Source: an uncultured candidate division Zixibacteria bacterium (GTDB lineage Bacteria; Zixibacteria; MSB-5A5; GN15; FEB-12). From it: a DNA stretch of 64,000 bases. Position 1 is the first letter of the stretch. The number at the start of each line of letters is the position of its first letter. The stretch lies in the NCBI GenBank assembly GCA_963735035.1, contig CAVTJJ010000006.1:480001-544000 (forward strand). The letters are read 5' to 3'. This document shows positions 27,934 through 38,253 of the stretch, piece by piece. Under the pieces are notes generated by a model. That model made no database searches. It was not told the origin of the DNA and saw nothing but the letters and a program-made list of their open reading frames with translations. A program made the translations under genes and the position numbers.

Positions 27934-30714
27934 TTACAAACAGTTGTTCAGTCCGAGCGAAGAGCCGGTGATGAACAGGTAGTCGATCAGTATGGAAATG
28001 TCGCCGATCGTGATGTCATCACAGATCGGATTTGCGCCTCCGGACTGGTTGATGTCAGCTTCCGGCAAACAGTTGATTATACCGCTACACGAACCGGTAA
28101 TGAACTTGGCGTCAATCAACGCACTAACGTCGCCAATGGTCGGTTCATCTCCTCCCAGCGAATTGGCGTCTCCGACACGGCCGATACAACACGTCGTGCG
28201 TTCTGCCAGGACCAGCGGGTAAAGACCGTCGGTTTGTCCCGTAATGGTGTTCAGGATCGGATCGATACTTGTAGTAATATTCTCCCAGCTTCCGCCCCGG
28301 TAGGCCATCAGGACCAGGTCAGACTCGCCGGCTGTCAGGTCAGCCTCTGAATACGACAACGAGAACGTTATACTACCGATGCTATAGGCCGTAGTGGCGG
28401 GCTGATAGAATCGGGGAGAGGCAGCAGGAACAGGACCATAACCTATCGGCAAAGCCGGCCCAGAGGTCTCTACGTCGGCCCAGGTACTCCCTTTACCGCC
28501 ACACGTGGAGAACTTGACGCTTAGATTATTAGAAACGTTGACCGTTTCGTTGAGACCTTCGTCAGTGTTCCCCACCCAGAAGTCATCGACATACCAGCCT
28601 TCCGCAGTCGCGCCGCCATCGGAGCCGAAACGGAACATCAATTGAATCGGGCCTGACCACGCCGACAGGTCAAACGTCGATTGAGCCCATCCAGTGCTTC
28701 CGGCGAAGAGTCCATTGGTTCCGTCAAAATTCAGCGACGAGCCGGTTTCTATCGTCGTCTTGGGATATCCGCCTATGGGGAACAACTTCGTCCAGCTCAC
28801 GCCGTCGGTCGAAACCATGAGGATACCGCCGTCCCACGCGGAGCCGACCGTAGACCCGCATTCCGAATAGATCCGATGCCAGAATGTCAGATTCGAACCG
28901 GGAGCAAGAAGAATCGGTTTGGTAACCAGACCGCCGTCCGAACCGTCGACATATTCGACCGCCCCTGGTCCACCCGCTTTCCAAGCATAGCCGCCGCCGT
29001 GTGTACGATACGTCTCACGATGCCACTGATCATTGAAACGATCCACCACGGCGCGATGGGACCATTGGTCTTCTCCCGATTCCGCGTCGTCGGAGAAGCC
29101 GTGGGCGTTACCAACCCTGATAGCAAGAGGATAGTCTGCCGAGAAGCCGCCTTCCTCTTGAAGGCGCACGGTCAGGTTGATCATATATGGAACCGGACAC
29201 GACGGATCTATCAGTATGCTGGCGGGGGTTGTGACCGTATCAATCTGGCCGTGACTCAAGCTTGCCTTGAGCGATGTCGTAGCTACCGGGACCGTCACAT
29301 AAGGATCGGTGCTCAACAGCGTGACACTGGCGTTGTTGACTGCCCAGCCAAGATTTCGGACCACGGAACGGATGTTGACTGATTCACCCGGCTCGGCGTA
29401 AGCATCGCCGTCGCCCTGAGGCTCAACTATACTGCCTTTGTATGACATGTAAGCGCTGGCCTCGGGCTTGATATTGATAACCATGTTTTCCATGGCCGAC
29501 GGGCAAATGCCTCCGGACACCCATGAACATGACAGGTGATCTAGTACATACCACGCGGTGTTCCCCTGGCCCCAGCCATAGTTCATATGGAATTCATAAG
29601 TTACGCCGTCCGTGCGCCATCCGTCGCAGACGATCTCATGTGAGTGAATGCCGTACCAGATCGGACGACCGGCGTTGATTTCCTGCTGGATCACGCTGAA
29701 CCATCCGGCCAGATCGTAGTTCTTTCGACAAATAAGGGACAGTGACCAGTCATACTTGAAGTAGTAGGGGATGGCAAAGAGTCCGATAGATTGCGCGGCG
29801 CCCGAAGCACAGGAACCGTATGCCATATCCAGAGCAACGCCGGTTTCATAGCACAGTTCTGCCAGAGCCGCCTGCTGGGTGCCATTGCAGCCCAGGCCGT
29901 CGTCACAGCTATCACGCATGCCGGCCCAGTCATAAGGGTCAGAGAAGTCAGCCGTCAGAGTTTGAGGAGGAGTAGGCGTCCCGCCGCAACTGTTGTCGCC
30001 CGGCCAATAATAGGAGTGGCTGCCAAAACCAGCGTCGGGCCACTTCCAGAAATACATCAATTGGGATAAGGCTGTGGCCACGCATCCCACGACCGTGCGT
30101 CCGCTCTGCCCGCTGGGACAGTAGTTGTTGTAAGGGGCGCTCTGATGCCAGGAAGTAGTCAATAGTGGTCCGGCCGCATCGAGCGAAAGAGAAGCATCCA
30201 TCCGATAATCTTTTGACGACACTGCCATCTGATTCCAAAGCGAACGGTCCTTCGATCCAAACATACCGGCATCGCCCGCGGGTTGGCTATTCGACGCGCT
30301 ACCGTACGTGGCCACGAACGCGGTATACTGAGCGTAGAGCTGATCTCTCAAGAGCGCCACGATACCGCCGTTGTCAGAACCGTCGAGATGTCCTGTCGTA
30401 TTGTAGGCCTTGACGGGCGGCATTTCCATGAGCACCGGAACGATTACGAAACCGTCGGGCTGTATATTGTAGTACCGGGCCAACACGACCCCGTCCTTTT
30501 CGATTAGGCCGCTCTCGGCGATCACTGGAGTGAGACTTTCGCCCCAGGCGCCCTGGCGAGCTATCGAGCGGGTAAGCCAGTTGGCACAGACGTCCTGCAT
30601 CTGTTGTGTGGTTGCCACTTCAGCCCAGGCCGAGGCGGAGGAGAGAACGAGGACGAGTAGGGCGATTATGGTCGACCGTCCGGAGAGACGGCGGCTTGGT
30701 TCAAAGATGCGCAT
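27934..30714 (-). CDS. Secreted C10 (streptopain/SpeB-like) cysteine protease with jelly-roll domain and dockerin-like module
   Basis: PLLTTSWHQSAPYN, VVGCVATALSQ, HEIVCDG, HMNYGWG; FRFGSDG...GWYVDD; CCIGRVGDANSLGGDEPTIGDVS. Confidence 0.9.
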   Translation of the reverse strand: MRIFEPSRRLSGRSTIIALLVLVLSSASAWAEVATTQQMQDVCANWLTRSIARQGAWGESLTPVIAESGLIEKDGVVLARYYNIQPDGFVIVPVLMEMPPVKAYNTTGHLDGSDNGGIVALLRDQLYAQYTAFVATYGSASNSQPAGDAGMFGSKDRSLWNQMAVSSKDYRMDASLSLDAAGPLLTTSWHQSAPYNNYCPSGQSGRTVVGCVATALSQLMYFWKWPDAGFGSHSYYWPGDNSCGGTPTPPQTLTADFSDPYDWAGMRDSCDDGLGCNGTQQAALAELCYETGVALDMAYGSCASGAAQSIGLFAIPYYFKYDWSLSLICRKNYDLAGWFSVIQQEINAGRPIWYGIHSHEIVCDGWRTDGVTYEFHMNYGWGQGNTAWYVLDHLSCSWVSGGICPSAMENMVINIKPEASAYMSYKGSIVEPQGDGDAYAEPGESVNIRSVVRNLGWAVNNASVTLLSTDPYVTVPVATTSLKASLSHGQIDTVTTPASILIDPSCPVPYMINLTVRLQEEGGFSADYPLAIRVGNAHGFSDDAESGEDQWSHRAVVDRFNDQWHRETYRTHGGGYAWKAGGPGAVEYVDGSDGGLVTKPILLAPGSNLTFWHRIYSECGSTVGSAWDGGILMVSTDGVSWTKLFPIGGYPKTTIETGSSLNFDGTNGLFAGSTGWAQSTFDLSAWSGPIQLMFRFGSDGGATAEGWYVDDFWVGNTDEGLNETVNVSNNLSVKFSTCGGKGSTWADVETSGPALPIGYGPVPAASPRFYQPATTAYSIGSITFSLSYSEADLTAGESDLVLMAYRGGSWENITTSIDPILNTITGQTDGLYPLVLAERTTCCIGRVGDANSLGGDEPTIGDVSALIDAKFITGSCSGIINCLPEADINQSGGANPICDDITIGDISILIDYLFITGSSLGLNNCL

Positions 30715-30976
30715 GAAAGGTTTCCTTATGTCGAAAGCGGGACTTCATGTAGTCTACTCAGTAAGTACAGCCTTAAATATAAGCTCTTTTGGCTCGTTCG
30801 GGGGGCTTAATATAGGGAGTCCTGGTTTCTCTTAAGGATTTGGTCGGATTTGCGGAGGTTGGGGGAGAGGGTCTGCAAATAATAATGGCGGCCGGTGTTG
30901 GGACGAGTCGGGGAAGTCGATAGACTACAGGGGGATGGGAGTCGCGAATTTTTTTTCGAATTTTATGAGAATCCCC

Positions 30977-31005
30977 TTGACATGGTCACAGGGGTTCCGT
31001 ATCCT
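30977..31005 (+). promoter_or_regulatory. rRNA operon promoter
   Basis: TTGACA-17 nt-TATCCT with AT-rich upstream tract; boxA-like gttctttgacaac about 50 nt downstream. Confidence 0.75.
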
Positions 31006-31220
31006 GTCCGTCTGCCAGGTATGTTAATTTACATGTCAGGCGGTTTTTTTTCGCTGTTCTTTGACAACTGAATAGCCACGCTGAAGACAAGAAATTGGTC
31101 TTGTTTTCATGTCGCGGGTCCTAAATTTCGAAAGATTTTTGAGACCTTTCTAAAGTAAACCAAACGCGAATGCGTCGTTCGTGTTTTTCGGATCACTATG
31201 TATATATCGTATTTTTGATA

Positions 31221-32772
<1,552 letters not shown>

Positions 32773-32913
32773 CTAAGGAGTAGGTGTGAGGTCCGTTTTA
32801 ACGGATCGAATGCTTAGGTCGAGCGATATGTTGACATACTCATTTTTTGTTTTTCAGCGGGCTATTTGGATATAAATGTGGTCGCGTCAAGGCGACGCTG
32901 AGTACCTTCGTAT

Positions 32914-32990
32914 GGGCCTATAGCTCAGTTGGTTAGAGCGCGCGCCTGATAAGCGCGAGGTCATTGGTTCAACTCCAATTAGGCCCACCA
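32914..32990 (+). tRNA. tRNA-Ile (GAU)
   Basis: GGGCCTATAGCTCAG...CT-GAT-AA...GGTTCAACTCC...GGCCCACCA. Confidence 0.98.
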
Positions 32991-33062
32991 TGACGGCGGG
33001 CCTGACAGAGTCTTTCAGTTGGAGATGCCGGCGATCTCGCGATCGAGCGGCAAGCGTAAAGC

Positions 33063-33887
33063 ATGCCCGATGCGAAGTTTGACGCCGGCTCGTACTGGAA
33101 AGAGCGACTTCGACGCAACTTCGACCTCACTGGGGTCGGATTCAGGCGACGAAGCGCTGCCTACAACCGCTGGGTGTATCGAGTTAGATGCGAACACCTC
33201 GACGAATTGTTTAGGCGACGAGGCTGGCCGATCGAAGGAAAAACGGTCCTGGATGTCGGATGCGGCACCGGATTCTTTATCGACCACTGGCTGCAACGAG
33301 GCGCCGGACGGATTACCGGACTGGACGTCACCGAAGTCAGTGTTGAGCGACTGAAGAAACGGTTCCCGAATGTAAAGTTTGTTCTCGCCGATGTCTCTGA
33401 ACCGGGTCTCGAAGTAGACGGAACATTTGATTACGTAAGTATTTTCGATGTTCTGTACCACGTCGTAGACGATAAGAAGTTTGAGCAGGCAGTTGCGAAC
33501 CTGTCGCGACTGTGCCGTCCCGGAAGTCGAGTGATTATCACCGACATGTTCGGCAAGCGCACGGTCGAGGTAGTGAAGCACGTTCGGAATCGGTCGCAAG
33601 GCCGGTACCAGGAGATTTTCTCGAAGAACGGGTTTGAACTGCTTGAGATGAAGCCGTTGTTCTTCACTCTGATGCCCCCCTCCCGGGTGGCGAGTCGTCC
33701 GGTCTATTGGGCCGGGGCTCTGGCGTGGGAAGCGTTGACTTTCCCTGCGCGCTGGGAATGGTTGGGCGGAGTGGTAGGCGGCGGGCTCTATAGGGTCGAT
33801 TCCGGACTACGTCGACTGTTCCACAAGGGACCGTCACATCATGTCGCGGTGTTCGAGTTCAAGGGAACCGGACCAGGCCCGAAATAA
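33063..33887 (+). CDS. Class I SAM-dependent methyltransferase inside the 16S-23S spacer
   Basis: 274-aa intact ORF; VLDVGCGTG (motif I), ITGLD, ADV, FDYVSIFDVLYHV, LCRPGSRVIITD. Confidence 0.88.
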   Translation: MPDAKFDAGSYWKERLRRNFDLTGVGFRRRSAAYNRWVYRVRCEHLDELFRRRGWPIEGKTVLDVGCGTGFFIDHWLQRGAGRITGLDVTEVSVERLKKRFPNVKFVLADVSEPGLEVDGTFDYVSIFDVLYHVVDDKKFEQAVANLSRLCRPGSRVIITDMFGKRTVEVVKHVRNRSQGRYQEIFSKNGFELLEMKPLFFTLMPPSRVASRPVYWAGALAWEALTFPARWEWLGGVVGGGLYRVDSGLRRLFHKGPSHHVAVFEFKGTGPGPK

Positions 33888-33919
33888 TTGGAGTGGTACG
33901 GCAGATCGACTCGTTAACT

Positions 33920-33995
33920 GGGGATGTAGCTCAGTTGGGAGAGCGGTGGCTTTGCAAGCCACAGGTCACCGGTTCGATCCCGGTCATCTCCACCA
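33920..33995 (+). tRNA. tRNA-Ala (UGC)
   Basis: GGGGATGTAGCTCAG...TT-TGC-AA...GGTTCGATCCC...TCTCCACCA; G3:U70. Confidence 0.98.
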
Positions 33996-34153
33996 TAGTA
34001 AAGAAAAACCTTCGGGTTTTTATATAGACCGCCTCGGCGGTCGCAGGCTCTTTGACAACTTCATAGTTTTTTGGGTAAGCAAGCAATTGGTATCTTCCAA
34101 TTGGTTGCGCAGTGTTCAAAGAGCAAATAATGGGATGCTCTCAGGTAGATTTC

Positions 34154-37159
<3,006 letters not shown>

Positions 37160-37303
37160 AAAAATATCTACACTGAATGCGTCCCCATTATTCAATGGAC
37201 TCGGCGCAACCAATTGGGCGATGCTAACGCTCTTGTAGGTCGGAACCTTCATGGTTTCAACTCACGGGAAAGCAAGCCTATCCAAAAAACTATGTCATTG
37301 AGT

Positions 37304-37422
<119 letters not shown>

Positions 37423-37430
37423 TTAAATAA

Positions 37431-37465
37431 GAAGGCCCCCTCCAGCAATGGAGGGGGCTTTTTTT
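37431..37465 (+). terminator. rRNA operon intrinsic terminator
   Basis: ggccccctcca-gcaa-tggagggggct followed by a T run. Confidence 0.9.
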
Positions 37466-37538
37466 GTGTTCGGAGTTCGGGCTGCGATACCCGGCTGATT
37501 CAATATTGCATTTGAGCCGTTACAGTCTATCTTTAGGG

Positions 37539-37874
37539 ATGACACCCATCACCGATGCGCTGCTAAAGAGCTTGGCCGACACAATTGTACAGACAGCCGA
37601 CCCGGACTATGTCTATCTTTTCGGCTCGTACGCCCGTGGCGACGCCAAGCTGGATTCCGACCTGGATATACTTGTGATTGTTGACAAGCCGTTTGGTCCG
37701 AACCGGAGCCGCTTGGCCGAAATTAACAAAATCCGCAGCCGTTTGACCAAGTTCCGGATTGCGAAGGACGTGCTGGTTTACAGCGCCGATGAACTTCGCG
37801 AATGGAAAGACTCACGCAACCATGTCATCGGTCGATGCGTGCGGGAGGGACGGTTGCTGTATGCCCGAGCGTAG
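37539..37874 (+). CDS. Minimal nucleotidyltransferase (MNT; putative antitoxin)
   Basis: YLFGSYARGDAKLDSDLDILV (GSx10DxD); C-terminal EGRLLY; overlaps the HEPN gene. Confidence 0.9.
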   Translation: MTPITDALLKSLADTIVQTADPDYVYLFGSYARGDAKLDSDLDILVIVDKPFGPNRSRLAEINKIRSRLTKFRIAKDVLVYSADELREWKDSRNHVIGRCVREGRLLYARA

Positions 37875-38253
37875 GCTGGCACAGGAGCTACTGACTGTCG
37901 CGAAAACCGATCTCCGGGCAACATCAGCCATGCAAGACGGATTGGTATTTCCTGACGAGATATTCGGATTTCATGCGCAGCAGGCGGTCGAAAAGGCGCT
38001 GAAAGCATGGTTAAGTCTGTTGGATTTGGAGTATCGACGCGTACATGATCTGGACGAGTTATTTGAATTGATAGCCGAAACCGGTAATCCGATCAATGCG
38101 TCGTTTCGCACTCTGGCTGAGCTCACACCCTTTGCGGTTCAATTTCGATATGACACGTCGGCCCTGTCTCAGGGCGAATTGAATCGCGCCGACCTTGTGT
38201 TGCGGATAACTGGTTTGATTGATCATGTCGAGACTCTCCTGAATCGCGGGTAA
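37861..38253 (+). CDS. HEPN domain protein (putative toxin of an MNT-HEPN pair)
   Basis: FHAQQAVEKALKA, RRVHDL, FAVQFRY motifs typical of HEPN (PF05168-like). Confidence 0.9.
   Translation: MPERRLAQELLTVAKTDLRATSAMQDGLVFPDEIFGFHAQQAVEKALKAWLSLLDLEYRRVHDLDELFELIAETGNPINASFRTLAELTPFAVQFRYDTSALSQGELNRADLVLRITGLIDHVETLLNRG

Follow-up and report, generated by a model that had tools for sequence, protein, structure and literature searches.

A conserved methyltransferase gene lies between the spacer tRNA genes of a single rRNA operon in Zixibacteria

Ribosomal RNA (rRNA) operons are usually regarded as holding rRNA and transfer RNA (tRNA) genes only. In the thrU-tyrU-glyT-thrT-tufB operon of Escherichia coli, tRNAs are co-transcribed with a messenger RNA (mRNA) and separated from it by tRNA processing, and the open reading frames (ORFs) of introns or intervening sequences, such as those for homing endonucleases, lie within rRNA genes and are mobile or selfish. 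Cleavage of tRNAs is described as the driver of mitochondrial mRNA maturation (PMC5474008), and ORFs called inside rRNA operons are said to be usually dismissed as annotation errors (PMC3203614). A survey of unlinked rRNA genes treats genes more than 1500 bp apart as unlinked and gives a mean internal transcribed spacer (ITS) of 418.7 +/- 169.7 bp (Brewer et al., preprint 10.1101/705046). A full-text literature search, with subscription journals outside its coverage, returned no account of a bacterial rRNA (rrn) operon with a protein gene between its spacer tRNAs. Here we analyse such a gene, which encodes a methyltransferase, in a 64,000-nt stretch of a Zixibacteria metagenome-assembled genome (MAG), hereafter the window (positions 480,001 to 544,000 of contig CAVTJJ010000006.1).

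The rrn operon in the window is complete, and every gene is on the + strand. Between tRNA-Ile(GAT) (32914-32990, with a genomic 3' CCA at 32988-32990) and tRNA-Ala(TGC) (33920-33995, CCA encoded) lies a co-directional ORF at 33063-33887 (+), which starts with ATG and encodes 274 amino acids (aa); its start is 72 nt from the end of tRNA-Ile, and its stop codon is 32 nt from tRNA-Ala. With an open frame of 275 codons and an in-frame stop two codons upstream, this ATG is the sole usable start. The layout is that of tRNA punctuation, in that a coding stretch is bounded on both sides by co-directional tRNAs in one putative transcription unit. As in mitochondria, the tRNAs directly flank the coding stretch in a presumed rRNA precursor, and a promoter or terminator of its own was not found; unlike in mitochondria, the host is a free-living bacterium, the arrangement is limited to one slot, the rrn operon is canonical in other respects, boxA and RNase III-type stems included, and processing at the tRNA borders is presumed. 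The tufB operon likewise places tRNAs and a translated message on one bacterial precursor, as would be the case here, but it is a non-rRNA operon whose mRNA is distal and has its own terminator, whereas here the message would be internal, with a tRNA on each side, and 23S and 5S would depend on read-through. The gene resembles rRNA-intron ORFs in being a protein gene embedded in an rRNA transcription unit and differs from them in lying in the spacer between tRNAs, in encoding a housekeeping-type enzyme and in showing no mobility signature. As with unlinked rRNA genes, the distance between 16S and 23S is enlarged by non-rRNA DNA; however, at 1381 nt this ITS would be scored as linked, and so missed, under the cut-off of that survey, and the operon signals are intact.

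This is a real gene under selection for a class I S-adenosylmethionine (SAM)-dependent methyltransferase, now part of the bacterium's single rRNA operon, and we consider it likely that it is co-transcribed with the operon and its message released at the tRNAs. The protein is assigned to the class I (Rossmann-like) SAM-dependent methyltransferases by family models, motifs and a predicted seven-stranded alpha/beta fold. Pfam gives Methyltransf_25 at 1.8e-18 and 67.4 bits (cut-off 27), Methyltransf_11 at 61.5 bits (21.2) and Methyltransf_31 at 59.5 bits (27), and these matches agree, as do the coordinates, with the co-directional 274-aa class I methyltransferase that the first-pass annotation of this DNA had placed 72 nt and 32 nt from the tRNAs. 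G66, G68, G70 and D88 are invariant in 84 sequences; we take the three glycines to be the glycine-rich motif I and D88 to be the acidic residue that ends strand 2. The confident predicted model (predicted local distance difference test, pLDDT, 95.5) combines the class I fold with a helical N-terminal part and a hairpin of two helices that precedes the last strand.

Comparison with other genomes and sequencing runs upholds the arrangement by three checks that the first-pass annotation had proposed, namely junction-spanning sequence, comparison of ITS regions and the ratio of nonsynonymous to synonymous substitution rates (dN/dS). An orthologue with an intact ORF occupies the same slot in the same orientation in five further genomes (G002, 79% aa identity; G001, 69%; G080, 55%; G014, 54%; G018, 40%), which together with the window genome (G000) span four genera of one family, f1; carrier G014 is a single-contig, closed genome with one 16S. 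The 6-contig, 3.6-Mb window genome also yielded a single 16S, and its spacer DNA is present once. dN/dS is 0.20 for G000-G002 (dS 0.67) and 0.11 for G000-G001, deeper pairs being saturated, and the gene has thus long been kept under purifying selection. The junction of tRNA-Ile and the gene is bridged by contigs from four public runs of four studies, which derive from close relatives and not from this strain; no run matched more than 0.20 of the sampled words, and the relatives, at ~89-98% identity, are represented by contigs only. In one RNA library (metatranscriptome X5), a 660-nt contig spans 32930-33590 and a 589-nt contig spans 33640-34224, the latter joining the gene to tRNA-Ala, the spacer and the start of 23S. 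In several genera, this protein gene has been stably kept under selection in the only rrn operon.

Read-through followed by tRNA processing is the best-supported mechanism of expression, and transcription with the rRNA precursor and release at the tRNAs the most likely course. RNA polymerase from the rrn promoter would read through the methyltransferase gene, and RNase P, cutting where tRNA-Ala begins, and processing of the tRNA-Ile 3' end would release an mRNA of ~0.93 kb, made up of a 72-nt leader (32991..33062), an 825-nt coding sequence (33063..33887) and a 32-nt trailer (33888..33919). Synthesis of the message would then be one-to-one with that of rRNA, as in the logic of mitochondrial tRNA punctuation. 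A candidate rrn promoter, recognised by consensus match alone, lies 5' of 16S at 30977..31005 (+; TTGACA, 17 nt, TATCCT). A scan for the sigma-70-type consensus and for intrinsic terminators found no promoter-like or terminator-like site within 32773-34153; the three promoter-like sites (5.1 expected) and seven terminator-like sites (7.2 expected) of the scanned region, 30500-38000, all lie outside it. The same scan of four other carriers (all but G002) found no + strand promoter-like site between tRNA-Ile and the start codon and no + strand terminator-like site between the stop codon and tRNA-Ala.

The signals of the operon itself are retained around the gene. The spacer between 16S and tRNA-Ile (32773..32913, +) contains the 3' arm of the 16S processing stem and pairs with the leader at 31039-31217; the computed pairing energy is -88.4 kcal/mol, against -59.9 +/- 4.9 kcal/mol in 200 shuffles. 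The arms of the 23S processing stem are at 34062-34118 and 37196-37294 (both +), and the methyltransferase gene is outside both stems. The rrn leader carries GTTCTTTGACAAC at 31056-31068 (+), and the spacer after tRNA-Ala (34029..34059, +) carries a hairpin (GACCGCCTCGGCGGTC) followed by GCTCTTTGACAAC at 34047-34059; from their sequences we take GTTCTTTGACAAC and GCTCTTTGACAAC to be boxA elements and GACCGCCTCGGCGGTC to be a spacer hairpin. A Shine-Dalgarno (SD)-like 4-mer was not found at -18..-5 of the methyltransferase start. Such 4-mers precede 559 of the 1483 long ORFs of the genome (38%; background 9%), and with only 38% of long ORFs so equipped, the missing SD is ordinary. The folds of the untranslated regions (UTRs) are not significant, with z -0.40 for the leader in the window, -0.90 and -0.25 for those of two other genomes, and +1.64 for the hairpin-free trailer in the window, and the 3' UTR is 18-42 nt long in all six f1 carriers. 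Pairing between the 5' and 3' UTRs was considered and rejected (-23.9 kcal/mol, against -20.8 +/- 3.4 in shuffles).

The first-pass annotation had noted no evident promoter, terminator or strong SD, a location outside both stems and a second boxA after tRNA-Ala, all of which these results bear out. Its proposal that the gene is co-transcribed with rRNA and released by tRNA processing fits the anatomy (a signal-free spacer, a short 3' UTR, the retained boxA and 23S stem, and the bridging RNA-library contigs); expression at rRNA-promoter rates and coupling to growth would be possible consequences. If the gene is expressed in this way, it would be a bacterial counterpart of mitochondrial tRNA punctuation and a natural way to tie the synthesis of a protein to that of ribosomes.

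The slot between the spacer tRNAs has been filled in other Zixibacteria as well. A survey with the 16S end plus tRNA-Ile as query matched 110 of 285 genomes of the phylum, a few of which, on very short contigs (such as G148 and G007), were left out; among the 97 genomes whose loci were examined, G018 included, 80 had both tRNAs, 6 were cut by contig ends and 11 had no tRNA-Ile or 23S nearby. A co-directional ORF between the spacer tRNAs was found in 14 of the 80 (six of f1, four of f13, one of f17 and three of f7), and the cargoes are of four types, three sequence-distinct methyltransferases and one porin-like gene. That of f13, a 222-aa class I methyltransferase of the Methyltransf_23 type (dN/dS 0.07-0.18), is confined to those four of the 285 genomes (L244 661-1326; L245 1424-2089 (-); L256 564-1229; L287 411-1076). 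The f17 genome, G256, carries a 243-aa protein of the Methyltransf_25/11 type (L261 1524-2252, - strand), with relatives in f6 and f16 outside an rrn context. For both f13 and G256, Rfam confirms the order 16S end, tRNA-Ile, ORF, tRNA-Ala, 23S. All three f7 genomes have after 16S a gene for a 414-419-aa signal-peptide protein (L284 812-2053; L285 793-2049; L286 1778-3019 (-); dN/dS 0.21-0.35), which is weakly porin-like (PopA 6.6e-15, below cut-off). These other slot cargoes are thus under purifying selection too (dN/dS 0.07-0.35). At 22-32% identity to the window protein and to one another's groups, the three methyltransferase types have only the core motifs in common, which may reflect either very old common descent or repeated capture. 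On the genomes compared, the architecture is conserved and recurrent, and the spacer-tRNA slot looks like a recurrent place for protein expression together with rRNA in Zixibacteria. Surveys of ITS length with a 1500-bp cut-off would miss such operons, and 16S-ITS-23S amplicon studies of the phylum will encounter ITS lengths of 1.3-1.7 kb.

Several further observations were made at the surveyed loci. Eleven genomes of f5, f9 and f10 have no tRNA-Ile or 23S within ~2.5 kb after 16S, and their rRNA genes may be unlinked (L247, L249-L251, L262, L263, L271, L272, L277, L279 and L281). In one f7 genome, G065, two further secreted-protein genes follow tRNA-Ala, and 16S seems unlinked. In f6, a degenerate tRNA-like element lies ~110 nt downstream of a homologue of the G256-type methyltransferase outside rrn (L295 1326-1387 (-), L296 202-263 (-)); it matches the Rfam tRNA model at 46.7 bits over model positions 6-65, is not called by ARAGORN, and resembles the spacer tRNA-Ala in its 5' half. 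The non-rrn homologue in G250 (L109) has no ATG, GTG or TTG near its conserved N-terminus; AGGAGG is followed after 6 nt by an in-frame ATC, a possible unusual start codon.

Slot occupancy is linked, as an association, with an encoded CCA on tRNA-Ile. The genomic CCA is present in all 14 slot carriers, against 14 of the 66 non-carriers, and within f1 in six of six carriers against two of 30 non-carriers; on the spacer tRNA-Ala it is found in three of the 14 carriers and in nine of the 66 non-carriers. In the window genome, CCA is encoded in 20 of the 49 tRNA genes, and both routes to the tRNA 3' end must therefore exist in the organism. CCA is an anti-determinant for RNase Z, which it blocks. 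A CCA-bearing tRNA-Ile would stay attached to the message until cut by another nuclease, and the encoded CCA may alter how, or how fast, tRNA and message separate. The tie between slot and CCA offers a testable handle on the interplay of tRNA 3' processing and mRNA fate. It is conceivable, as a tentative and on the whole doubtful extension, that the spacer-tRNA junction of Zixibacteria is a reusable slot with one-to-one transcription with rRNA and tRNA-punctuated mRNAs, that the CCA of tRNA-Ile is its precondition or an adaptation to it, and that methyltransferases were recruited there at least three times as enzymes acting on the nascent ribosome. Under such a scheme, RNase Z could be blocked by CCA, leaving the tRNA as a cap that stabilises the message.

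A number of points weigh against co-transcription and tRNA processing and against the wider use of the slot. The promoter scan covers the sigma-70-type consensus only, and promoters of other types are possible in the 141-nt and 72-nt spacers. The X5 contigs establish the joined form within an RNA library and fall short of demonstrating a single transcript: such libraries may contain DNA, and contigs reveal neither ends nor strand nor abundance. A message that lacks both an SD-like motif and protecting hairpins at its ends may have a short life or be translated poorly. The f7 case is not an intact operon, since further genes for secreted proteins come after the slot gene and 23S is absent within 1.5 kb. 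Finally, CCA is frequent in non-carriers of f14, f17 and f20, and independent contrasts for it are few, being two only, both within f1 (the five-genome clade, and G018 against G140).

Our best guess for the substrate of the enzyme is a small-molecule, lipid or envelope-glycan acceptor, perhaps a phosphoethanolamine-type amine, with an rRNA, tRNA or ribosome target as a serious second. The best solved sequence relatives, found with a family profile, are the plant phospho-base N-methyltransferases 5wp5 and 5wp4 (E 1.1e-17 and 1.9e-15), and nematode and plant phosphoethanolamine N-methyltransferases score Z 19.6 and 18.5 in structure comparison. The likeness to the phospho-base enzymes extends over the core only (profile positions 47-193), including a D-x-x-x-H stretch after strand 4, whereas the window protein's own family has a conserved N-terminal motif, Y-W...G-V-G...Y-N-x-W, and a two-helix hairpin at the C-terminus that they do not share. 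In an alignment that covers the core only, H133 is aligned with a His of the second domain in the plant phospho-base enzymes, which we take to be catalytic there. The structure search that the first-pass annotation had suggested for finding the substrate class did not narrow it: Foldseek returned at least 500 matches at E <= 0.001 with TM ~0.5, a structure comparison with Z up to 21.1 gave a flat list in which 50 unrelated class I methyltransferases tie at Z 17-21, and an Atlas search gave generic names only. The protein has no transmembrane segment by hydropathy (top 19-residue value 0.69).

Members of the wider family, with identities of 31-45%, come from Gemmatimonadota, Actinomycetota and Chloroflexota, among others; of 80 loci, 4 are in rRNA context, all four from Zixibacteria. 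In a metagenome scan, none of 80 loci among the matches listed adjoins rRNA and none is closer than 45% identity, a result that says little. The 74 upstream neighbours of the wider family that were scanned include 23 Ser/Thr kinases, all in Gemmatimonadota, 9 glycosyltransferases from six phyla, 2 Wzy_C proteins, 2 polysaccharide deacetylases, 2 GDPD proteins and 1 UDP-glucose dehydrogenase. In the 23 Gemmatimonadota loci (L035-L098), a same-strand Ser/Thr kinase gene of 637-758 aa lies directly 5' of the methyltransferase homologue, a synteny conserved in, and specific to, that phylum.

An alternative that we take seriously, while judging it improbable on balance, is that the enzyme targets rRNA or spacer tRNAs, the products of the operon in which it is encoded, or ribosomal proteins, so that the location of its gene would reflect functional coupling and be more than a handy site of expression. 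An RNA or ribosome target is still in play because methyltransferases recur in the slot: three distinct class I enzymes, in f1, f13 and f17, would be unlikely there by chance if they were independent captures. The six ITS copies are also basic (isoelectric point 8.3-9.8), the Pfam FtsJ model is matched at 37.4 bits (cut-off 24.1), and tRNA and cap methyltransferases are among the structural neighbours at Z 17-19. However, these neighbours are tied with many others, and FtsJ is weaker than five generic methyltransferase families. The NCBIfam equivalog models for rRNA methyltransferases stay far under their cut-offs (RlmA 31.6 vs 303; TlyA 24.6 vs 250), and no RNA-binding domain was found in Pfam and NCBIfam scans of the protein. 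Moreover, relatives outside rrn often adjoin envelope genes or, in Gemmatimonadota, the kinases, the closest solved sequence relatives are phospho-base and other small-molecule methyltransferases, just 12 of the phylum's 285 genomes have the gene, and the fourth type of cargo resembles a porin.

It is unlikely, in our view, that the gene forms a transcription unit by itself, started at a non-consensus promoter and perhaps ended by Rho-dependent or weak termination, which would separate a 16S-tRNA-Ile half from a tRNA-Ala-23S-5S half. Such a unit could escape a scan that detects only sigma-70-type hexamers and intrinsic terminators, the second boxA could serve a restart of transcription after tRNA-Ala, and the depth of the X5 contigs is uneven, at 76.3 over the 3' part of the gene and 23S against 11.3 for the 5' contig. 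Against this, no promoter-like site stands at a matching place in any of the five carriers scanned, the leaders of the six carriers have no common motif by eye, the 3' UTRs measure just 18-42 nt and are free of hairpins, and boxA in the spacer after the tRNAs is what we take to be the normal bacterial layout. The 23S stem speaks neither way, since it needs read-through only from its own 5' arm.

Among the 36 f1 genomes with both spacer tRNAs on one contig, the gap between the tRNAs is 909-987 nt in the six carriers and just 7-32 nt in the other 30, and the insert is therefore derived. A tree of 16S plus the 5' part of 23S groups five carriers as one clade (97/96) and places G018 as sister to the non-carrier G140 (100/99); a host grouping of all six carriers is rejected on it (approximately unbiased (AU) test, p ~1e-5), with G018 supplying only 189 nt of 16S. 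The carriers are unresolved by 16S alone and resolved once 23S is added. In the protein tree, all ten copies from Zixibacteria group in a single clade (100/98) in which G018 branches first, and the five-carrier clade (96/97) is nested within a grade of four copies from family f17, which lie among unrelated neighbours at ordinary places on the chromosome. For the six rrn copies, monophyly is marginally rejected (AU p 0.029). These trees are most simply read as lateral acquisition with two separate placements into the same slot, and a single old insertion followed by several clean losses is possible, as the deep nodes of the host tree lack resolution.

The first-pass annotation had also offered a passenger inserted at a tRNA end, which is right as to origin and would be wrong if a neutral or recent passenger were meant. 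A neutral or selfish passenger of no benefit to the host would account for a derived insertion adjoining a tRNA 3' end, for the patchy presence in the phylum and for the nesting of the five-carrier clade in a grade of copies that lie outside rrn in a different family, which suggests lateral acquisition. It is nevertheless already disfavoured, and we regard it as very unlikely, in view of the dN/dS of 0.1-0.2, the intact ORF in six of six carriers across 40-79% protein identity and four genera, and a native composition: GC is 0.566 against 0.561 +/- 0.026 for the genome, the codon score lies at the 30th percentile, and GC at third codon positions is typical. No integrase, transposase or far-border tRNA repeat accompanies the gene, as would mark an integrative element, and the slot holds the methyltransferase ORF alone; the searches gave no phage match, and plasmid matches were all below 33% identity. 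The faint similarity of the flanks, considered as a possible insertion scar, proved to be chance: a local alignment of the two flanks, of 72 nt and 32 nt, gives a score of 12, which 409 of 1000 shuffles attain, and the flanks share TTGGAG only.

Misassembly at tRNA or rRNA repeats, a general concern where rRNA operons in MAGs are difficult to assemble, is refuted for practical purposes by the identical layout in six genomes, one of them single-contig, the junctions bridged by contigs from four other studies and the concordance of gene tree and host tree for five carriers.

The remaining features of the operon, all on the + strand, are 16S rRNA at 31221-32772 (1606 bits), 23S rRNA at 34154-37160, 5S rRNA at 37306-37422 and, read from the sequence, an operon terminator at 37435..37466, a G+C-rich hairpin followed by 7 T that is usable on both strands and whose hairpin the scan lists for the - strand. 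Elsewhere in the genome, outside the window, ARAGORN labels as Pyl a tRNA with anticodon CTA at C2:21792-21864 and calls a tRNA-SeC at C6:279330-279426.

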